Assembly (NCBI GenBank): GCA_951406725.2
Contig: OX597815.1
Location: forward strand, 90,582,001-90,646,000
Direction of reading: 5' to 3'
Length of the DNA: 64,000 nucleotides
Source: Octopus vulgaris
Lineage: Eukaryota
The translations under genes were made by a program, and so were the position numbers. Shown one piece after another: positions 12,726-62,600 of this stretch (positions within the stretch are counted from its first letter, which is position 1; each line of letters opens with the position of its first letter). The notes under the pieces were generated by a model that saw nothing but the letters and a program-made list of their open reading frames with translations, did no database searches and was not told the origin of the DNA.

Positions 12726-14559
12726 CAATGCTTACAAACTTTATCATAAACAAGGGACTACTCAACTCTTTCATTATTAACTATAGATTGTCTCGAGAAA
12801 CCCGCCATATGATGAGTCAACTTGAAACTATACTTTTAGGACAACAGCTAGCATCAGGAAATATGGCATGCATGCACGCGAACTTTCATCAAAGTTCTTC
12901 ATTCTAATACAAAATTATGAAATGAATGCTAATTTTCTCAGAAAAACATTTATTATGTTCAAATAAAATTTTATAAATTTATGTTAAAATAAAACTTAAT
13001 AAATTTCTCATTTGTATAACTCCTCCCCAAACTACTTTACTCATTTCATCCAGTCTCAATCACATATACACAGCTGCAGGATCTGGGCACTGACTAGACC
13101 GATGGTAAAATAAAATCGTTCACTCTGAAAGGATTGTTTATTTTACAATTGTTTTAGTTATTAGAATGCAGCTATGCTGAGGTCCCGTCATGCAATCAAG
13201 ATCCTTCTTCTCCCCTTACTCCTCATCCATGCCCTGACAACTCTCTTTCTCTTTCTCTCTCTCACTCTTATTCTCTCTCCTCCTCATTCCCTCTCACAGT
13301 TATTGTGTATAGCGTTCCCTTGTTTAATGCCTGCCAACGAGCGTCGTATGTGCACTCATATTGTTTCTCTTAATTTAACATCCACTATATCACTTTTATT
13401 CTCTCTTCTCTTTTTATACGATTTGAAGTTGGAAACATCAGAGAACCAACCGGCCTTCAAGCATTCTGATTATTATTATATAGACATTCTCCTTGCTAAT
13501 GAACAATTATCCAGTTCTTTGTCTTAGACTTATCACAATTCTTTTGAGAACTCAAAGAATGCAAAAAGAATACACGGTATTTTCTAAATTTTCTAAATTT
13601 CTCTATACTAAACTTGATTTCTTTGTTCAAGTACTCTTATGAACTCTACAAATTTGCCTCAGCTGTTTAATGAAGCATTTTGCACAATCTTAAAATCTTT
13701 TCTGTTAATGTGAATACCAAGAATTTCATTTTCACATGAAGGGCAGCTTTTTTTTTTGTTTTTCTTTTGCATCCACTAGTTTCCCCTCTAACCTGTCAGG
13801 GAAACTTATCAGTAGAATCTCCTGCAGATTTAATTTTCTATATTTGGTTACTGTCCAAAATTAGAGAAGCTTTTAGAAATAAGTCTACACTTAAAATACT
13901 TTTCAATTTATGTCTGTAGATTTGCTGATTTTTCAAGGCAGCCAAGAGCTATTTATGGAAATACTAGATTGTTAATTAGATTGAAGTGTAGTTGTGCTTG
14001 AATTGTCTATGAAAAGATCAGCCATTTATTGATATTTTAGAAATAGAGCCCATATTAGATGTGTTATATCCGGTGTTCTGTGTCCGGATTCAGTGAACAC
14101 GATACAAGAATAATTCTAAAGAGACTATGTGAAATTAACCTAAACTTTGAAAAGAGAAAAGACGAAACATCTCGAAAGTTAAAATCATCACCAAACAGTT
14201 TGAAGATTTTCCTATAAATTGCAAAAGCATGTATAGCTAACAGTCACATTGACCCCACCCAGCCATTTTTCAATTGGAAAATATAACGATTTAGTTATTG
14301 TAAATCGCATTTCGTAGCGGCCTTTTATGTAATGGTAAGTGTTAGACCGTGTCTAATCTTTTGTCATTTACTATTGAGAATATATACAATATATATATAC
14401 ATATCTGTACATACAGGCACATATATATACATATATGCATACAATACGTATGTATATATATATGTATAATGTGTGGGGGGAGGGTGCAAATATAAATGCG
14501 TGCGCGCGCAGTGTGTGTGTGTGCCTGTGTGTGTATGTACTACTTTTCTATATGCCTTC

Positions 14560-15300
14560 AGGACTGTTGTCATAAATATTCATATATGTCCAATATGCTG
14601 CATGCACACATTTCCTCATAAGATCTTTACAAAATTATCTCTGGTTATTTGAGAATATCCGGTTTTGCTGGAACTGCGATATGCGGTCAGTGTAGCGTTG
14701 CACCTTTGACGTTCTTGCCGCACACATTGTTTTAGGGTTTCGGTAAACATTTTGAACCCTTTCTTTTCTATTTGGTATTTTGTGTCAAGACATGCCCTTG
14801 CACCTTCTTTAGCATTTTCCCCTGGCCTTTGGACAATACTTCTATGCGATTCAGATCTCTACTCAAAGTTTTAATATCGCCTTCAATTCTCTGCTTCCAT
14901 CATGGTTCCTTCCGTCCGTTTACTTTCCTCTTTTTCTTTCTAAATTATTGGCCTACTAAAATTGAAGCGGATCTGATCAAGTCCCTTGTTCCCGCTAGAT
15001 CTTTTGTCAGGAAGTATTTCATAATCTTATCAACCTTTTGGGTCACGCGTTTCACATTGTTACGAAGAAAGCTTCCCAAATTCACCGGCCTGTCCCCTGT
15101 CCTTGTAATTATGATATCCTCGCGTCTTATTCTGAAGTTTCTCTGTTCCTCAGTCATATCCTCTCATACTGGGTTTTTTTTTACATTACATTGATTGGCC
15201 GGTTTCTTCTCTACTGCAGCTTCACCTTGGCTACGCATTCGCTGATCTTCACCTACATTACTCTCCTCGAAGTTATCACCACTACGGAGGAATTTCCCGA
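14560..15300 (-). mobile_element. Decayed R4/Dong-type LINE, N-terminal (pre-RT) fragment
   Basis: Minus strand: DLIRSASILVGQ, PWWKQRIEGDIKTLSRDL and ETLKQ align with NLIYSTAKVV / PKWKVAIQKEIESLRAD / ELLKQRI of the 22570 ORF. Confidence 0.65.
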
Positions 15301-16413: not shown

Positions 16414-17200
16414 TTTCGTATTCCTGTGCGATCAAAGCACAAAAGAAAAGAGTCACTCCCTTGCGGTCAGCAGGGGTCAAGTGTGTTTACTACTACTACT
16501 AGCGATCAATGAGAGAGTTGTCCTTGGCCTTGGAAAGGACCAGTTCACTTTGTTCTGTTTCAATAACTGATAGAAAAATTAATGATATATATATATACTG
16601 ATACGTACATCGTTGAATTTTTGAATTTTACATATTTTCTTTTTATAGGTTTTGCAGTGGTTTCCAGTTTTCTTAATTGTACAGTTTATATATATTGGCA
16701 GTTGCTTACCTCCTTAGTTTTTATCGTGCTTTTAATATTGGTGTGGCAATAAAAGGTATATCTACGTATTCCAATAGTCAGGGAGAAAATAAGAGTAAAA
16801 GTTTCACAGAAAATTGTAGTTATTAAAGTTTTTTAAATTTTATAAAGATGATCGTTGGTGTGTCCGTCCAGAGAAAACTGTAGAGTTCTTGCACTGGAAG
16901 AATGTTTACATTTTCAAATACTCAGAGAGAAGGAAAGTATAGATATTAATAGTAAGTTGTAGGTAATGAAGATTCAACATTTTTTTTCAAATGTTCATTG
17001 TTCCCATCGTTGAAATTTTTTTTTCTTTTTAAATGTTTTGTAGTGGTTTATAGGTTTTTTTAATTGTTCAGTTTGTGTATGTGGCAGTTGCTTATCTCCT
17101 TAATTGATATCGTGCGTTTAATAGCGTTGTTGTAATAAAAGGTATGTTTACATATTCGAGTAGTCACGGAGATTATTATTGTTATTATTATTATTATTAC

Positions 17201-17266: not shown

Positions 17267-18166
17267 TTTGTTTTTTTCTTCTTTCTTCAAATTTTCTTCC
17301 GTTTCTTGCCGTGTGTTTTCCATACACCTAGGGCAGAGAGGCTCGTTGTATGCATTCCCAGATTACACATGCAAATTCACAGATAAAATATGTATTTAAA
17401 AATTAATAAATAAATAAATCCATGGATGGATGTTGTTTTCACAGCGATAATGCTCTTCTCACTACATGAGCCGTTTCAGTTAATACGATATTTTGCACTT
17501 CCTGTTGGGATGGTAAGCCTGGAATCATTTTCAAATAGGTTTCAGTACCTTTTTTTTTATCATTCCTAGAGATCCAACAATCACTGGTACTGTAGTCGCC
17601 TTGAGATGCCACATTTTTTCAATTTCTATTAGCAGGTCTTTATATTTACTAATCTTGTCAAATTCTTTCGCCGCTATATTGTGATCGCAAGGGATACTCA
17701 TGTCAATTAATAAACACATCTTTTTTGTCTGATCTTTTATAATAATATCCGGTTTATTAGCTTTTATAGTCTTGTCGGCCTGTACGGGGAAGTCCCATAG
17801 AATCGACACATCTTCTCCCTCAGTCACAGCTTCAGGATGGTGTTTATACCATTTGTCAGCGGTTTTGATTTTATAATACCGACATATTGTCCAATGTAAA
17901 TACTGGCCGACTCTGTCATGTCTTGCTTTATATTCTGCAGGTGCTAAGACTCTACACCCTGAGATTAGGCGGTCTATTGTTTCAATCTCATCGTTACAGA
18001 ATCGGCATTTTGGGTCAGCTCCATTTTTTATCACATTGGCTTGGTAGTTCCGGGTTAATAAGCTTTGATCTTGAGCAGCTAATATGAAACCTTCACTCTC
18101 TGCTTTTAGCCCTGATCTTCGTAACTATTGATGCGTGTGTTTCTGGTCGACATCAGCTTGCTTTCT
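17267..18166 (-). mobile_element. 5'-truncated R4/Dong-type RLE LINE inserted in (TAA)n
   Basis: CRFC..ETID.LISGC zinc knuckle, RHD, KPDII..D RLE motif, then a 3' UTR. (TAT)n lies on both sides (17174-17266, 18167-18272). Confidence 0.9.
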
Positions 18167-18237: not shown

Positions 18238-19231
18238 CATTATTATTATTATCATTATTATTATTATTATTATTTATGTATTAATATCTTTATTAGTGAT
18301 GATGCAAGATACCTGAGTGATTCTTGCTTGTTGTTTCCCTGTACGATTCGTCTTTTTCTTTTCAAGATAGCTACGTGATTTGTAGCAAAATAATAATAAT
18401 AATGATAAAGGCATTACCTTTCATCTGCAACACCAGCATTCGCACACCGCTGTATAAGTCGAAATATCCGACTCTTTTTATGGGAAAAATCGGCAGCCTT
18501 CTAGGAGTCTCCTATAGTGTGGATGAGATTGAAATACCTAGTCTTTTTTCTTCAGCCGAGTCGTTTCAGAGAATGACAGCCGAGAGGGACTACTTGCCCT
18601 TGATGGTACATTTAATACTGTATCACTGCAGTTCTTTGATTCCTTCAAAGTAACTATGAACCTTAATCGCGACTTTTTCTTTCCTTTTTATAGTTATCTG
18701 TTGTTTTACTTCCTTCCCCTGGTCTAGATTTTTTCTAACCCCATCTATGCTGTATTTGTCTTTTGCAGGATCTCGTCAACGATAAAGAAACAATTACACT
18801 GTATGACAAAACAAAAAAAAAATTTAGCAAGAGTGTGACTCAAGGTAATTTTAAGGAGCTCTTTCTGAATATGAAATTAGGATTGCACCATCACGTGTAA
18901 ATTTTGATCTAGAAGACACCCACATATTACCAAATTTGCAGAAATTTAATATGGTGTGCAGTACGTTACGTGTTACTATTTGTCTTTTAAATATGCTTTT
19001 GATAGTTTATTTTTGTTACAAACTTTTAATGAGACAACTGTAAATGTAACGCATATAACACATGTTGAATCGTGTCTACTTTTTACAACACTGATTTAAA
19101 TGCGTGTTTCGGATGTTATTGGGACTTGAATCAAATTGGTAATTGCTTTGTTTACTGTGGACTGCAGCGTTTCTTTTTATTTCTCCACTTCAATTTGCTT
19201 CAATATGTATGGCTTCATGACGTGTATGTCA

Positions 19232-19788: not shown

Positions 19789-21102
19789 ACACGCGTGTGT
19801 GTATATATGTGTCTGTGCCTAGATATCTATATATAAACAAAAGCACTGGTTTGAAATCCAAGGAAGGGAAGAAAGTGTTTAATACTACATAAAGTAGTGA
19901 GAACAGATATACATCTATTATACCTGTTATCACAATGATTTGCCACACTAGATATTTTAAATCTTCTGGAACTTATCTTGTAGACACTCCAATACAAGGC
20001 ACGATTTGATTTCTACTCACTTTACATTCTTTGAGCAGAATTTGACAGTACCCATTTATTTCTTCGAATGCTATGAAAAATAATAGGCTCGAAGAACCGA
20101 GTAATATCACATCCATGATAAAACAGAAACTTGCTTGCAGCGTGAGACATTTGTGTATAGACAAACGAAATATTAATTTTGAAGAATTTTATGCTTGAGA
20201 TAACTTCACTTTAGGTAGGTGTTTCCACTTTCGATTAATGAGATTTTTGAGCTTCACGTTTTCTATTAATACCTTTTTGAAATATTTCGACTTCAAGCTG
20301 TTGAATATCATTACAATATTGTAAAGGATATTTGAGAGAGAAGCCAAAATTTAACACATTATTCCTGGTGTTTTAAATCTAATCACAATTTTATGTTTCT
20401 TTATACAACTATTATTAGTATAGAATAATCATCACCTGTATAAATAACCAGCAATCATTTTCAAACTTTCCTTTGGTATCAATTCTCCATAAGGCAATCC
20501 GTGTGTTGATATTTAACTCGCCTGATTGTCGATTGAAACAGTTACAAACTATCTGTGATACATAAGAAGGCGCGAAAATAGTTTAATGAATGCTGTGAAA
20601 ATAGATTAGCGAAGACTAGGTGAAAATTTGCTTCGGTGAAAAATCAATAACACCTTCTAGATATGACACATAAGTTAAAAAATAAACGAGGAAAGTTTCA
20701 AAGTCAAGCAAATCGAAAAGAGGAAAATAAAGTCTTCGAAGCACTTCGAAATATCTTTTATTTTGTATTCTTGTTTATTTATTTATTTATTCTGTTAGAA
20801 GTTTTCTTAAAATTTCTTTTCATGTGTGTGTATGTTTGTGTTAGTTTAACATCAAAGAAAGTTAAGGTCAGAGAACGACTGAAATAATTTTCTTACTATC
20901 ACTCGACGAAAATCTGATAAAAAAAAGCTACGGAAAGGCCTTATTGTAACATGGAATCGTTGACACATTTTAATCTAGAAAACGAAGCATCGACAATGTT
21001 AAACCTCTAATAATGCATAGATAAATTTCCATAAACACACAGACGCACACACATTCACTTAAGAGTTAGCTAGGCATCAATCCACCACTATTTAGAATGA
21101 TG

Positions 21103-21320
21103 TATATTTAAGAGATGAGGAATTATGTACGTTATTTACATTATTTACCATTAACGGATATTTGTCCTTATCTTTGTTGTTAACAAAACGTTCGACTTAT
21201 ATACCATCCAGCCTTCATCAGGTGTCTGAGGGACATTTCAAACCTGGGTTCTCATTCCTAAGGTATTCATTGATGTTGTTGTTGTTGTTATTATTATTAT
21301 ACTACTACTACTACTACTAC

Positions 21321-21369
<49 letters not shown>

Positions 21370-21444
21370 TTCACTGCCTGGAATCGAACTCGGAATCTTG
21401 GGGTTAGTAGCCCGCGCTCTTAACCCCTACGCCATATACCCGTG
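21103..21444 (-). mobile_element. tRNA-head + (AAT)n + hammerhead element (copy 2)
   Basis: Homologous to 241-416 and 61438-61925. The hammerhead at 21182-21226 has CTGATGA intact, but GAAA is reduced to GAA. Confidence 0.85.
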
Positions 21445-21445
21445 A

Positions 21446-21508
<63 letters not shown>

Positions 21509-21519
21509 TAATAATAATA

Positions 21520-21947
21520 TAAACGTATCTGTCAAGACCTACCAAAAACTGAGCAAATATAGAGATCTTGAAATAGAAATCAGCAAAATATGGAACCTGA
21601 AAACTAAAACAATACCTGTTGAGGTGTCCTGGGAAAGATAGCAAAAGGGGCTGATTGCTACCTAACTCAGATACCAGGAAACCCAAAAATGGCAGAAATT
21701 CAAAAAATAGTGCTCATGGTAACTGCTCATATCCTACGCAAAATATTTTCTATGTAATTTCAAGTTTTAATACAAACATAATTTTCGTATGTTTTTTTTT
21801 AAACATTCACTAGTACAACACTAAATACAAAACCAAATGTATGGCACACTAGGCATAACAACATGAACTTCCAACCTGTTGTCTCTTGAGGTCTCTGGGT
21901 GAGACTTGGAGCCAACTTGTACAAATATAAAGCAAAAGTCAAACATA
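21520..21947 (+). mobile_element. R4/Dong-type LINE 3' fragment between AAT tracts
   Basis: NVSVKTYQKLSKYRDLEIEISKIWNLKTKTIPV ... QKIVLMVTAHILRK, then a 3' UTR ending in (AAT)n. Confidence 0.88.
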
Positions 21948-21963
21948 TAATAATAATAATAAT

Positions 21964-21999
<36 letters not shown>

Positions 22000-22324
22000 A
22001 ATAATAATAATAATAATAATAATATTCAGCTCCGGGCTGAATAACAACATGGATGTTCCCTGGGAGCCTCTCTCCAAAAAACGAATTTAATCCAACAACA
22101 TCGTTAAAATGGAAGAAAGGTTCCACAAAATATCTTTTCCAAATTTTCTTTTAAGGCAAAGTAACTAAAAAGTCCGAACTATTATTGCCATATATAGTAT
22201 GGTTTTCTTTCTTTTATGCATAATATTTCCATGTGACATGCATGAGAAATAGAAGCGAACATCAGAGCTCTTGAAAGACAGTAAGTACATAAATTGATTA
22301 ATTAATTAATTAATTAAATAAGTA

Positions 22325-22417
22325 TACATGCAACTGTTTATGCATACACGTACACATTTTAATTATAAGGTGTACATGCAACTGTTTGTGCATACATGTA
22401 CACATTTTAATTATAAA
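22325..22417. repeat. 48-bp tandem duplication
   Basis: TACATGCAACTGTTT(A/G)TGCATACA(C/T)GTACACATTTTAATTATAA occurs twice. Confidence 0.9.
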
Positions 22418-22569
22418 GCATAAATAATGCTTACACGCGCTCACACGTACACACAGAAAGAAAAACCACGTTACGCGGACGAAAACAAAACAAAAACAAA
22501 GCGATTTTTCACGAACAAACGCAAAAAAGAGAAAATTGGTCACTGAATTTAGAAAGTCACTACACAGTT

Positions 22570-25500
22570 ATGCCCGGAAACATGACTACCAAAAGAAATA
22601 GAGGCGAATTTCGATCTGTAAGTCTTATGCGAGTTCGATATGAACAATATATTAATTCGGAGAATTCAGAAGCGCTGTTTTGTCAAAAAATTGACCCTGT
22701 CACCGTCACAGAAGCGGCGTCTTGTCAAAAAGTTGACTCTGAAAAAATGGACCCCTCTGATGTCGCCGTCAATCATTTAATGAAAACAAGCCAAAAATCA
22801 TGCCGGATCGGTCATCGCCCGGGACAACAAGGACCGCGTTACCCAGTAGGGAACCAGACTGGGGTCGAAAAGTTTGCTGCTGGAACAAACTCTCAAAAAG
22901 ACGATCTACCAGGTGACCAGAACCAGAATACGTCTAACTCTGGACTTGTAGTGACACCACCAAAAACACCACCTAAAGCAAAACGTATAAAATGGACCAG
23001 AGAGGACTATAGAGATGTGTTGAAAGCTTTTTATACAGCCCAACTAAACCCAAACAATAACCTCTGTGTACAAACATACATCTCATGGAGAAATTCAGTA
23101 GGCAATGACGTACGTAGATATATAGACGCAAATAAATTAAGTAATGTACGCAGAGATATAATTAAAAACAAAAGACTAACTGACGCTGAAATTGACAAAA
23201 TTAGGACACTAATAGCTCATGGTAGACCAAAAGAAAACAGCAACAATGTAGACGAAATAGGTAACAGTAGCACAGAAGCCAGTGTACAAGCGGCAAATCA
23301 ACTTCCCAATGGGGAAGTTAAACAAAGAATAGCGAAGACGAGAGATTTGAAAAAAGAGGAGAACGTAGACCTTCCTCAAGAAAACCAAAATAGATATGAC
23401 ATAGAATTTGAGGTGAATAATAGAGAAAAGATTATGGAAGCAAAAGTGGACATTATGAGAGAACTCGGCAAGATTGAGCTCACTGACATGGTTAATAGAG
23501 AACCACTACCAAAGTTTTCAAATGGCACAAGAAATAACAACACAATCATGACATATAACGTTGCCCTAGGACAGATCTTAAGAAATAAGGGGAATGATTT
23601 GACAACCTTAAATAATCTCATTTATTCCACTGCTAAAGTAGTAACTACCCAACTAGGTATTAAGATGACAAAGAAAAAGGCCAGGCATGTCAATGAACCT
23701 CCTAAGTGGAAAGTAGCGATACAAAAAGAGATTGAATCTCTGCGGGCGGATGTTTCAGTTCTCGATGAGCCTGCTAGAGGAGTGAATATTAAGCCGAGAA
23801 AAGCTAGAAAAATCAAGCAAAAATATAAAATCAAAGATCTCATAAACCTCCCTACAACTAAGGAACTGTTGAAACAACGGATACAGTTGAAAGCTCAACG
23901 GCTTAGAAGATATGACAAAAGAAACAAATTTTATCGACAAAATAAATTTTTTAAGACAGATGCAAAGAAATTTTATAGGGAAATTGGCAAAAATAAAATA
24001 CACATAGAAGATCCACCTAAGATTGAGGAAGTGGAGGAGTTCTGGAAGAAGGTATGGAGCAACGAAAAAGAGTTTAATGCTGAGGCTGACTGGATAGAAC
24101 GTGAGAAAGAGAGACTGGATGAACTTGAAGAACAGAAATGGGAAGCAATAGGAATAGAGGAGCTAAGGTGTGTCCTTAGGAAGGCTCATAAATGGAAAAC
24201 CCCAGGACTGGATCGGATCCCTAACTTCTGGCTGAATTGTTTGACAGAGGTACACGAACATCTCGCTGCATCTCTGTCTGATGTCATTCAGAACCCAGAG
24301 CAAATACCTGCTTGGCTGACTGAAGGAACCACCTACCTATTACCTAAAACCGAAGACACAAAAAACCGAAAGAATTACCGGCCAATAACATGTCTCAACA
24401 CCACCTACAAAATCCTCACATCCATAATAACGGAGAGAATGTACGCTTTCCTTGAACAAAATTCTATCCTTCCACAAGCTCAAAAAGGTTGTAAAAGAAA
24501 CTCTTATGGGTGCAAAGACCAATTGTTCATAAACAGAATGATTGTAGAGAATTGCCGGAGCAAAAACAAAAACCTGAGTATGGCATGGATAGACTACAGG
24601 AAAGCGTATGACAGTGTCCCACATAAATGGATACTCAAGGCCCTTCAGATATACAAGATCTCCCCTGTCGTCTCAAAATTCTTAGAGAATAGCATGACCA
24701 TGTGGAACACACGTCTCTTTCTAAGCCATAGTAATGGGATGAGCCAGTCCAACAGCATCAACATCAAACGAGGCATCTTTCAAGGTGACTCCCTCTCTCC
24801 ATTACTTTTTTGCATGGCACTGATCCCACTCTCAAACGAATTGGATAGTGCCAGATATGGGTACATAGTTTTTAGCAAGTTAATAAACCACCTTTTTTAT
24901 ATGGACGATCTAAAGCTGTTTGCCAAGAATGACCAAGAGCTAGAAGTGCTGCTAACAACTGTTAAAGAGTTTAGCAATGATATCGGAATGGATTTTGGCC
25001 TTGATAAGTGTGCTAAAGCAACTTTTGTAAGAGGCAAGCTCAGGCAAACAGCTTCTGTTAAATTAGATATTGACACTACCATCAAGGAACTTGACCCACA
25101 AGAAAGTTACAAATACCTAGGAATCAACGAAGGAGATGGTATACATCATGCTACTATGAAGGAAAAAATAAGAAAGGAGTACTATAGGAGAATAAGGCTT
25201 GTACTGAAGACTGAATTCAACTCCAAAAATTGCATTGAGGCCATTAACACCCTGGCACTCCAGTAGTCCAGTACAGGTTTAACATCATTAACTGGAACCT
25301 TACGGAACTCCAACGCTTGGACAGGAAGACAAGAAAGTTACTGACATCCAGGAGCATGCACCACCCTAAGGCAGATGTAGACCGCTTGTACCTACCTAGA
25401 AGAAGCGGGGGGAGAGGAATGATGCAATTGGAGCTGTGCTATAAGACCTCTACTGTAGGAATGAACAGGTACCTATCTAGTACAAAAGACTGGATGCTGC

Positions 25501-26455
25501 GACTTGTGTGTGAACACGAAAGCAGCAAAAAGCTGCATTCTATTGTCAAGGAAGCTTATAAGTTCGAAAGGGAACTAGGCATTAACCTTGAATCAGGTGA
25601 AGAGCCAGAAACCACTGCTACCAAGCAAGCAAAGCGAATCATGCAGACTGCAAAAAAGAATGGGCAGAATCAAATTGAGAGGCGGTGGAGCCAGAAGCCC
25701 CTGCATGGACAATACATTCTCCGAAGCCAAAATGCTGATGTAGACCAAGCAACAACCCATCAGTGGCTGAAGAGTTCTGGATTGAAAGCAGAGACTGAAG
25801 GCTTCATAATGGCAGCACAAGATCAAAGCTTGTTTACCAGAAATTACCAGGCTAACGTTCTCCGAAACGGTACTGACCCTAAATGCAGATTCTGTGACAC
25901 ATTTGACGAAACAATAGACCATCTCGTTTCGGGATGTCCTGTGCTGACACCAAACGAATACAAAAATCGCCACGATAGGGTAGGACAGTATATACATTGG
26001 AAGATATGTATGTAAACACTACAAATCCGACACTCCTGCTAACTGGTATGAACACCATCCTCAGCCAGTTGTTGAAGGTAAAGATGTCACCATCCTCTGG
26101 GATTTTCCAGTCAACACTGACAGAACGATCAAGGCTAATCGACCAGACATAATTGTTAAAGACAGGGAAGAAAATACCTGCAGACTAATAGAAGTAAGCG
26201 TCCCCACTGATAAAAATGTATCTGTCAAGGAATTTGACAAACTTAGTAAATATAAGGACCTGGAAATCGAAATACAGAGGATGTGGAATCTTAAAACAAA
26301 AACTGTTCCTGTTATTGTAGGTGCCCTAGGTATGATAAAAAAAGGGATGTCAGAAACACCTAGACAATATCCCTGGAAAACCACGTCTCAAGGAAATCCA
26401 AAAGATTGTGCTAACAAGTACTGCCCACATCCTTAGAAAAACCCTATCAATGTAA
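22570..26455 (+). pseudogene. R4/Dong polyprotein (RT, CCHC zinc knuckle, RLE) with 3 frameshifts (~25260, ~26010, ~26345)
   Basis: KNYRPITCL, WIDYRKAYDSVPH, GIFQGDSLSP, HLFYMDDLKL, YKYLG; CRFCDTFDETIDHLVSGC; RHD; NRPDIIV..IEV; ends HILRKTLSM*. Confidence 0.93.
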
Positions 26456-26609
26456 ATGTTTGTGTTTGTATTACATGGAGATATTTCTCTACTTCCCCTC
26501 CCCAAGCTTTCAGCTATATTTCAACAACTCTTAATCTTCACTTGCCCTAGGGCGCTAGGTGTTCCCCGGCAGGTGATTGCATCAAACATGCAGGTTAAAA
26601 GTAAATGAC

Positions 26610-26642
<33 letters not shown>

Positions 26643-26643
26643 A

Positions 26644-26690
<47 letters not shown>

Positions 26691-26694
<4 letters not shown>

Positions 26695-27240
26695 CTGTGG
26701 GACTTTCCAGTACATACAGCCCGAACCATCGGGGCCAATAAACCAGATATTGTTGTGAAAGACCAAAACAATAAAGTTTGCTTATTGATCGACATGAGCA
26801 TCCCCTGTGATCATAATATCCCAGCGAAAGAGTTTGACAAGCTCAGAAAATATAAAGACCTACTCATTGAAATTGAGAAAATGTGGCATCTCAAGGCGGT
26901 TACAATACCAGTGATCGTAGGAGCACTAGGAATGATCAAGAAGGGAACCGAAAATTATATGAGAATGATCCCTGGCTAACCATCCCTGCAATAAGTGCAA
27001 AAGATCGTCTTAACTGGTACATCACATGTATTGAGAAGAGCATTGTCGATGTGAGAATTGTTGCTGCTCATGTATTTTAATTTAACTTAGGAAAAAAAAA
27101 AAAAAAAAAATGAACGAACTATTGAGTTTGGTTTAATGGCCTACCGATGTATACTATGAGTTTCTTTGCCCTAGGAGTCGGGAAGACACTCGGCAAGAAA
27201 TGGAAGCAAATTTGAAAGAAGAAAAAAAAAAAAAAAAAAA
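26691..27240 (+). mobile_element. R4/Dong-type LINE 3' fragment (family related to 17267-18166)
   Basis: ILWDFPVHTARTIGANKPDIVVKDQ..LIDMSIPCD..., then a 3' UTR, poly(A) and (AAT)n. Confidence 0.9.
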
Positions 27241-27283
<43 letters not shown>

Positions 27284-27478
27284 TAATAATAATAATAATA
27301 ATAACAATAACAACAATAATAATAATAACAACAACAACAACATCTAAAAATACCTTAGGAATGAGAACCCAGGTTCGAAATTTCCCCAAGACACCTGATG
27401 AAGGCTGCAGGGTATATCAGCCGAAACATTGTATTAACAACAAACAAGATGACAAATATTTGTCAATTGTAAGTAATG
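27241..27478 (+). mobile_element. (AAT)n + hammerhead tail of the tRNA-head element (copy 3)
   Basis: AACATCTAAAAATACCTTAGGAATGAGAACCCAGGTTCGAAATTTCCCCAAGACACCTGATGAAGGCTG... is the reverse complement of copies 2 and 4. Confidence 0.88.
27390..27435 (+). ncRNA. Minimal type-I hammerhead ribozyme motif
   Basis: gacac CTGATGA a GGCTG cagggtatat CAGCC GAAA catt gtatt, with a perfect 5-bp stem II. Confidence 0.75.
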
Positions 27479-27529
27479 AACTAATTAAATGTCTTGTAAT
27501 ATAGAAATAGATAGAATTATATGCCGCTA

Positions 27530-27740
27530 ATTTTGCTAGCGGTTAGTTTGTAGTTAGTATTTCGCCCGTCGCTACGTTCTGAGTTCAAATTCCGCCGATG
27601 TCGACTTTGCCATTCATCCTTTCGGGGTCGATAAATTAAGTACCCGTTACGCACTGGAGTCGATGTAATCGACTTAATCCGTTTGTCTGTCCTTGTTTGT
27701 CCTCTCGGTGTTTAGCCCCTTGTGGGTAGTAAAGAAACAG
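27530..27740 (+). mobile_element. tRNA-derived SINE family B
   Basis: CGTTCTGAGTTCAAATTCCGCC...CATCCTTTCGGGGTCGATAAATTAAGTAC...TTTAGCCCCTTGTGGG. Confidence 0.88.
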
Positions 27741-28240
27741 ATATAAGCCATGTAGATAGTATCGATGTGAGTACAGTGCCAGAAATAAGTGGATATTCAA
27801 TACAGTCAGAGATATACGTACAGAATTGAAAGCCAAAGATAAAAGTTTCTAATACGGTGGAGGATATCGTGTTTAAAATTGAAAGTACACCCCGAAGACA
27901 CTTGTTTTCGTCTTTGTATATTGATATCAATTCGTGTCATTTCTTCAAGTTCTAAATGCCTGCATGAGGGTGTTACGCGTTTCAACCGTGTCCATATGTA
28001 TAGTTTTCAGTCATTTGCTTACGTTGGAGAAGAGTAAATTGATATTAATGATTCTGTCCCCCTGCAAGTTAAAGATATTATAAACTTGTATAGAAAAGGC
28101 TGTTTCTAACTGTATTCTTGCAGCACAAGTGGAAACTATTATATTTAGCTTTCAATTCCGCACGTATGTCTCTAACTGTATTGAATATCCACTTATTTCT
28201 GGCACCCTTCTCACATTGATACTATCTACATAGTTTATAT
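27741..28240. mobile_element. MITE-like element with ~105-bp inverted arms
   Basis: ATGTAGATAGTATCGATGTGAG..GTGCCAGAAATAAGTGGATATTCAATACAGT versus ACTGTATTGAATATCCACTTATTTCTGGCAC..CTCACATTGATACTATCTACAT. Confidence 0.85.
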
Positions 28241-60930: not shown

Positions 60931-61437
60931 AAAATTCTGCTCAATACCACATATTTGCTTGTCAGTTGTTTGACCCTAACCAGTTAAGCACTCCCTTGGT
61001 GGCTGACGCTATGTGCATCTCTGATCATGAGCAGAAGTAGTGGGGATGCATCATAACAGTGTGTTGAAAGGAATTATTAGAGGTTTTGATAATTGACATT
61101 TGGAAACATGGGTGGTTCGTTCAAAATCCTTAAGCAATCCTTATTCAGTGACATTTTGAGTGGAATGGGCTACTCGACCAGAAGAAAATTCTAACTGGGC
61201 CCCACCTGCAAGGTCATGCGCTGTTTATCTTGATATGAGATAATCATCTCGCACTCATATGGTTGTGATGCATATGCCTAGTGTACCCTTATCAGACGGG
61301 TAATCATGATGGGTATACTGGGCTTCGTATATTTTACCCCAGTGTCACTTTGATGGCAAGCACTGCTCTCTCACTCAATAATAATGTTGTTTTCATTTAG
61401 GAACGTGATCGGGTTTTTTCTGACAATGCGTTCCATT

Positions 61438-61925
<488 letters not shown>

Positions 61926-62600
61926 TCCTGTCAAAGTGATGCAGCAACTGTGTGAAGTAGCTTCTCCCTGGACGGAAGCAATGTTGTTTTCATTTAGGAA
62001 CGTTCCATTGTCTTGTCAACATGTGAGGTCAGAGAGATGGGCCTGTAGTTTTTAGCATCTGCTGTGCTCCCGCCTTTATGGACAGGACATATTATTCCCT
62101 CTTATAGCATGTTTGGAAGTTTACTACATGCAAGAAAACTCTGAAATAGTATCTGCAGTGGCTTTGCAAGAGCCTTTTTACATGTATTTAAGGGAACAGC
62201 CAGACGTTCATCTGGGCCTGTTGCTGAGTTTGAGTTCATCTCATCAATGGCCGATATTACATCCTCTTCTGCTGTGTTGATGTAATTGATGGTTGTATAT
62301 TTTCGGAATAGATTCGTTACATTGAAAAACACCTTCGGCTTGTTTATTTGCATATTTCCGGTGGAGAAGTGAAAACACTTCCGAATTGTTTATTTAGTGC
62401 TTCACTTATCTTCCCCGGGTCAGCAGTTAGTGAGCTGTTTTTACCAAATAGTGACCATATATTATAGCGTACTGAGGGAGACCCATCTGCCAACGTGTAG
62501 AAGGCTTTAGGATTTCCTTTTATATTTCTATCTTCTCTTTCTTTTTCATGCGAGATTTTTGAGTTTATTTTCTGTCTCGAAGATTTCCTCTGTCAGGTGA
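61926..62600 (-). mobile_element. Decayed CR1/L2-group LINE, RT N-terminal fragment
   Basis: NSATGPD..LNTCKKALAKPLQILF, ICPVHKGGSTADAKNYRPISLTSHVDKTMER. Confidence 0.78.

Follow-up and report, generated by a model that had tools for sequence, protein, structure and literature searches.

The original papers on the targeting of TAA repeats by the retrotransposon Dong are said to be those of Xiong and Eickbush in 1993 and of Kojima and Fujiwara in 2004. The R4-clade long interspersed nuclear elements (LINEs) with a restriction-like endonuclease (RLE) considered here were Dong of Bombyx mori, DongAg, DongBg, Dong1 and Dong2 of Darwinula and the octopus group “Dong-R4” (PMC3812793, PMC3636483, PMC7998251, PMC13282606, PMC8967140). 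Dong targets (TAA)n (PMC3812793, PMC3636483, PMC7998251), and R4/Dong proteins have an N-terminal SANT/Myb-like domain without zinc fingers (PMC7998251). Among the recently active LINE groups of Octopus vulgaris, Dong-R4 is the largest in number, with 5 families and 1129 insertions, and the expansion of Penelope-like elements (PLEs) was dated much earlier than Dong-R4 activity (PMC13282606); both Dong-R4 and Penelope are abundant in coleoids (PMC8967140). On the side of Penelope and Poseidon, the systems compared were Adineta Pen2a (PMC3846280), Poseidon_Ac (PMC11167929) and those of PMC8557442 and PMC4209133. PLE insertions carry an inverted 5'-truncated copy of the pseudo-long terminal repeat (pLTR) and, at one end, a tail of 30–40 bp (PMC8557442, PMC3846280), and their hammerhead ribozyme is of a minimal kind in which helix II is preceded by a bulged base (PMC4209133). 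Hammerhead cleavage was unnecessary in vitro, the tail being explained by internal initiation of reverse transcription (PMC11167929). We analyzed a 64-kb stretch of O. vulgaris DNA (contig OX597815.1, positions 90,582,001 to 90,646,000; 34% G+C and microsatellite-rich), which is called the window below and whose own coordinates are used throughout. We are fairly confident that three Dong-like families lie in it in one orientation within the AAT tract of the inverted arm of what is probably an old Penelope insertion, having likely arrived singly via TAA targeting and with no sign of a need for this host.

The locus is built around a back-to-back repeat. Arm A occupies 21103–21444 on the minus strand and arm B begins at 21442 on the plus strand, the two having 3 nt (GTG, 21442–21444) in common; the initial annotation, which let a minus-strand copy run directly into a plus-strand one, was correct on this point. 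On its own strand, arm A consists of a tRNA-like head (21367–21444), an (AAT)n/(AGT)n/(AAC)n tract without a LINE (21270–21366), a 3' body with a hammerhead (21139–21273) and a 3' tail of about 35 nt (21103–21138), which is confined to this arm, arm B stopping at the position that matches 21139. Arm B is inverted and 5'-truncated. Its first 8 nt (21442–21449) are the final ones of the head, and it resumes at 27341–27343, about 5.9 kb further on, as had also been noticed before; its 3' body (27343–27478), which includes a minimal type I hammerhead at 27390–27435 and has no tail, ends near 27478. Between the two halves of arm B are three LINEs, all on the plus strand: L1 (21517–21946, about 430 nt), a Dong-like 3' stub comprising the end of the RLE domain and the 3' untranslated region (UTR), with a 4-nt deletion in its coding part; L2 (22024–26609, 4586 nt), which is near full length; and L3 (26691–27242, about 550 nt), another 3' stub with two in-frame stops and an A-run at its end. 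Four (AAT)n-type tracts of 69, 77, 84 and 102 nt bound and separate them, located on the plus strand at 21450–21518 (AAT), 21947–22023 (AAT/AAC), 26610–26693 (AAT turning to GAT) and 27241–27342 (AAT/AAC). Removal of the LINEs in silico had been proposed as a check, and scripted excision of L1–L3 gave a contiguous arm of head end, tract and body that was colinear with arm A and with two further copies of the repeat in the window, C (61438–61928, minus strand, with a tract of about 260 nt of AAT/GAT/AAC and no LINE) and D (243–640, a second fold-back). As first proposed, the three LINEs occupy a single AAT tract, split by them, in an arm that bears a hammerhead.

L1, L2 and L3 each matched the identical 10 of 10 RLE-LINE proteins tried in tblastn searches. 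Pairwise identities of their 3' ends were 49.0, 57.0 and 58.1% in DNA and 54–68% in protein, and they therefore belong to three families; the earlier description of three distinct plus-strand RLE LINEs, each bounded by AAT, is correct, and serial colonization of one tract by different LINE families, as proposed there, is likely. A fourth Dong-like 3' stub, L4 (17262–18165, minus strand), was found between two AAT tracts and was 72.6% identical to L3. All four Dong-like LINEs in the window run in the sense AAT direction and are flanked left and right by AAT-type tracts (1 in 16 by chance), which agrees with the TAA-repeat targeting reported for Dong/R4 (PMC3812793, PMC3636483, PMC7998251). Relatives of these LINEs were detected at three loci among metagenome contigs, one of them with a 3' junction, and at none among viral contigs; the relative L001 ends in (AAT)4, and L002 and L003 stop short of their own 3' ends. 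A 3'-UTR motif with a predicted stem-loop fold is common to L2, L3, L4 and L001 (window 26543–26570, 27167–27195 and 17305–17335; L001 2840–2870), and L1 has a different hairpin in this place. The shared motif is likely the recognition signal of the reverse transcriptase (RT). Its predicted inner stem varies in sequence among the four Dong-like families.

L2 provided the most complete protein. It contains one open reading frame (ORF) at about 22570–26455 with frameshifts near 25258, 26005 and 26337, and no stop was present in the first 893 codons or in the four frame segments checked. The product has RVT_1 (E 4.5e-31) and zf-RVT (E 2.9e-4) domains and, after the RT, reads a CCHC knuckle (C-x2-C...H...C) followed by the RPD..D..K..KY residues of an RLE. 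Among 7991 scored candidates 2662 were homologues at E ≤ 0.001, the best being 69–71% identical over the region; neither “Dong” nor “R4” appeared as a name among the best 120 of them, and all 5 PDB sequence matches of the top homologue, P0002, were R2 or R2-type RT proteins. The N-terminal module (22966–23238; 91 amino acids) is conserved and was modeled with a predicted local distance difference test score of 89. Foldseek gave no match to this module at E ≤ 0.001. A VIA structure search returned many Myb/SANT-type domains among its top matches (Z 5.0–5.5), mixed with TetR and winged-helix folds and all with Z < 6; for example, Zeste had Z 5.5, a root-mean-square deviation (rmsd) of 3.2 and 66 aligned positions, and TRF1 had Z 5.1, an rmsd of 2.3 and 52 aligned positions. 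The modeled module would thus agree weakly with the Myb/SANT-like domain of R4/Dong.

With an ORF for RT, CCHC knuckle and RLE in L2, and with AAT flanks in one orientation, the resemblance to Dong/R4 recognized in the initial annotation is supported, and by sequence L1–L4 look like Dong/R4 elements. Features in common with Dong/R4 include a single ORF, no N-terminal zinc finger seen, an RT, a CCHC knuckle and a C-terminal RLE, besides (TAA)n flanks, heavy 5' truncation and abundance in octopus; a Myb/SANT-like N-terminus may be another, given the weak structural match above. The difference is that here three families are stacked in one tract of a probable Penelope pLTR; stacking or nesting of Dong is not described in the excerpts of the Dong/R4 literature compared. 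The 5' UTR of L2 carries a 48-nt tandem repeat in 2.3 copies (22310–22422). At its 5' end, L2 and flanking AAT bases form a predicted 9-bp hairpin (22016–22042); a hepatitis delta virus-like ribozyme, considered there by eye against the topology of that ribozyme, was unsupported, the terminal hairpin alone being predicted.

The abundance of the families was assessed by summed contig depth in sequencing run X1, which according to the tool's own warning is not a copy number and which was 54 for the flank contig. It amounted to about 0.7–1.2 million for L1 and 0.4–0.76 million for L3, and across L2 it rose from about 4,000 at the 5' end to 233,000 at the 3' end. This depth profile indicates that the three families are abundant and present mostly as 5'-truncated copies.

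The nature of the host repeat is best seen at copy D, whose minus arm (243–571) comprises the end of a Penelope ORF (447–571), the head, a short tract and the hammerhead, and whose plus arm (571–640) comprises the tail. Its head is 89% identical to that of arm A. Upstream of it, 447–575 translates into a stretch of 43 residues with 79% identity to P0122, a protein with 2301 relatives at E ≤ 0.001, in which the matching part was the C-terminus in those inspected. When ten longer relatives were scanned, RVT_1 was found in four at E ≤ 2.4e-6 and in a fifth at 8.2e-6, and two of these RVT_1-positive proteins also showed a weak GIY-YIG domain (E 0.0008 and 0.004), which in both falls short of the Pfam cut-off. 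In the window the link between head and ORF end is seen at copy D, arms A and B being cut at the head; contigs in four runs from four studies bridge the same two parts. The host is most likely the 3' end, or pLTR, of a Penelope element and not a separate ribozyme short interspersed nuclear element (SINE), and the three-tier chain of PLE, ribozyme SINE and Dong proposed initially was not upheld, the head of copy D following the end of an RT and GIY-YIG-type ORF. The N-terminus of P0123 looks, by eye, like the reverse strand of a pLTR tail joined to the end of the Penelope ORF, and would be another fold-back junction that a gene caller translated.

Fold-backs of the host repeat were common. Two of its three insertions in the window are inverted pairs, and at other loci at least about nine joints of head positions 408–421 to tail positions 573–619 were counted in the best 15 of 156 rows, at roughly single-copy depth. 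Besides, 99–156 loose ends per run were located at head position 421, and their weak consensus (agreement 0.45–0.47) reads into an inverted head. The fold-back, with its one-sided tail of about 35 nt, matches the published PLE structure, and we regard it as a standard inverted-pLTR insertion. Copy D has an 11-bp target-site duplication (TSD) at 230–240 and 644–654, and none of 400 control pairs was as good. It also has the look of an inversion of the twin-priming type, since on the element about 11 nt separate the outer end of its inverted arm from the inner start of its tail arm, and it shows a 29-nt internal deletion ahead of the hammerhead. Further similarities to Penelope/Poseidon are an RT and C-terminal GIY-YIG-type ORF that ends just ahead of the repeat, a head-to-head inverted 5'-truncated arm, a 30–40-bp tail at one end, a TSD of about 10 bp and a type I hammerhead of minimal form whose helix II follows a bulged base. 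What differs is the tRNA-like head and the internal (AAT)n tract, for which we found no published parallel in the excerpts compared.

The tRNA likeness of the head was judged by eye; ARAGORN called no tRNA in the window, and a search with a head motif gave no loci in viral contigs and none in metagenome contigs. The 3' end of the repeat is unique sequence, whereas a tRNA-derived SINE would end in poly(A) or a simple repeat. Octopus SINEs derived from tRNA were reportedly described by Ohshima and Okada in 1994 (cited in PMC10886601); their families are named OK, OR1 and OR2. By description they resemble the repeat studied here in having a tRNA-derived head on an abundant repeat, but differ in that the head here is joined to a Penelope-type ORF end and is followed by a hammerhead.

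Rfam reported no hammerhead in the window at gathering score, and its seven weak matches at E ≤ 10 within 20900–27900 were unrelated, none being a hammerhead. Scanning both strands with a minimal-hammerhead pattern resulted in three matches, in arm B (27395), in copy D (291) and at an unrelated site (28322); arms A and C are degenerate and gave no match. In arm A (21182–21226) helix II is broken and one core A is missing. In arm B the core and helix II are intact, and helix III has lost its palindrome and helix I one pair; the majority allele at 27408, within this region, differs from the window. When three hammerhead regions and two heads were folded as monomers, the z scores lay between -0.10 and 0.28, giving no folding-energy support. 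The hammerheads of arms A and B are both decayed and are predicted to play no part.

We then considered whether the LINEs depend on the tracts of their host, as the initial annotation had suggested. Six AAT loci were found in the window: four pLTR-borne tracts (A, B, C and D), the site occupied by L4 and, at 18389, a tract of 20 nt. That the host element disperses AAT tracts is thus correct for four of six loci. Dependency, on the other hand, did not find support. Only tract B is occupied among the pLTR-borne tracts, and A, C and D are empty. L4 occupies a tract with no pLTR sequence within about 400 nt on either side, and the host is therefore not required. Occupancy was 1 of 4 for pLTR tracts versus 1 of 2 for other tracts (Fisher p = 1), too few loci to be informative on enrichment. 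Similarly, the unrelated metagenome contig L001 has the arrangement Dong-(AAT)4-Dong, its second fragment being of the same LINE kind (E 2.5e-10). Judging from L001, the only metagenome locus with a 3' junction, head-to-tail stacking looks intrinsic to Dong-like LINEs, and it can be attributed to TAA targeting combined with the AAT at the 3' end of each LINE.

The history of the locus might have been as follows. A Penelope/Poseidon element with a pLTR of tRNA-like head, (AAT)n and minimal hammerhead would have inserted as a head-to-head pair, in which arm A kept its tail and arm B was 5'-truncated and inverted, the two being joined at the 3-nt microhomology in one event. Dong RLE proteins, acting in the way known from the literature on their enzymology, would have nicked the tract of arm B and reverse-transcribed their own RNA there, two of the resulting copies being 5'-truncated and one near full length. 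Each insertion would have split the tract and ended in AAT, and slippage would have lengthened the pieces, such that the site stayed a target while it grew. The LINEs would have come serially, in an order that is not fixed except that L2 may have been last; it is probably the youngest because it has no stops.

Several observations weigh against this account. The head was covered at 3.0–3.2 million in X1 and the ORF end at 0.4–1.3 million, a 2–8-fold difference, and many contigs stop at the head while many others continue from it into the ORF end. Many short head-first copies therefore exist, some of which may move as SINE-like units, and full and short forms may coexist. The pLTR-borne share of the AAT loci in the window is such that the pLTR could be the main source of targets. 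The candidate TSD of the A/B pair (21087–21099 on the left, 27480–27491 on the right), which is the best position-constrained match and appears decayed, is weak, with 6 of 400 control pairs scoring as high under the same constraint; without it the match was not significant (558 of 5000 controls). The identity of arm A to arm B is 83% (112 of 135 nt), versus 89% between arm B and copy C, and neither supports nor excludes a single event. Finally, no read or contig was seen to cross any of the tracts, and the order and adjacency of the pieces in the stack therefore rest on the assembly.

If the host were a ribozyme SINE mobilized by Penelope, on whose AAT pads the Dong families depend or which they prefer, the deeper coverage of the head, the many copies that start there, the four element-borne AAT loci and the presence of three of the four Dong-like LINEs of the window in one element-borne tract would all be expected. 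We nevertheless think this improbable: the head adjoins a Penelope-type ORF end without a break, L4 sits in a tract without element flanks while tracts A, C and D are empty, and L001, whose wider context is not visible, repeats the Dong-(AAT)4-Dong pattern in an unrelated contig. About equally doubtful is the idea that arms A and B are two independent abutting insertions or were brought together by a later deletion joint, which would leave the LINE stack unchanged. The modest identity of the arms and the degenerate TSD agree with it; no head of arm B was found to the left of arm A, however, the tail is present on one arm only, arm B ends at the common tail-less end, and copy D and many contigs have the same head-to-head form. 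Least probable of all, and very much so, is a partial assembly artefact in which pieces of different loci were joined at AAT tracts. Every junction does lie inside a microsatellite of 69–102 nt, and no record was seen that spans one. Yet the halves of arm B fit exactly around the stack and the 5' and 3' junctions of each LINE are regular. Besides, X1 contigs at nearly single-copy depth (53 and 39, versus 54 for the flank contig) carry the rare allele of the window at L2 sites 25216 and 25277, although it was absent from X1 contigs at five other listed L2 sites. An X1 contig is also identical to the window over 20800–21130, and at 27807 and 27813 X1 and the window disagree.

The preferred reading, a Penelope pLTR whose split tract received three Dong-like families, makes the pLTR what may be a large passive source of Dong targets. 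A stronger version, to which we give only a small chance, is that long (AAT)n tracts in the genome come mainly from the Penelope pLTR, that the spread of one Penelope family made most of the target space of several Dong families, and that Dong copies lying in sense between the tRNA-like promoter and the hammerhead could be transcribed, trimmed or carried along by Penelope; if true, it would link retrotransposons of two unrelated orders as commensals. In general, the observation is real and is largely ordinary behavior, both of whose ingredients, the targeting of TAA repeats by Dong and inverted pLTRs that carry a hammerhead, have been published. Each part is of a known kind, the tRNA-headed, AAT-bearing pLTR being the one unusual element. 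Among the titles and abstract openings covered, from a collection with few subscription papers, none described stacked Dong elements within a pLTR of Penelope or a pLTR headed by a tRNA-like sequence; these families may already be present in the repeat libraries of PMC13282606 and PMC8967140. The locus illustrates neatly how a microsatellite that belongs to one retroelement becomes a self-renewing target for another, and how stacks of repeats build up in an animal genome rich in them. It would gain in importance if, genome-wide, most Dong insertions lay in Penelope-borne tracts or if Penelope copied Dong passengers.

Some neighboring features of the window were also observed. Copy C is located (61383–62003) inside the old remnant of a LINE that coded for an RT, and a 23-nt direct repeat flanks it on either side, some way from the element ends, suggesting a complex insertion or a local duplication. 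Downstream of L4, a tandem duplication of about 165 nt (80% identical; 16621–17171) starts exactly at the AAT tract. A different and far more abundant short repeat, with a summed X1 depth of about 29 million, lies 80 nt behind arm B (27557–27744) and has at least five further copies in the window. Weak tblastn matches of Dong-like proteins (E 3e-5 to 7e-4) at 14554–15058 on the minus strand possibly represent an old decayed RLE-LINE fragment.

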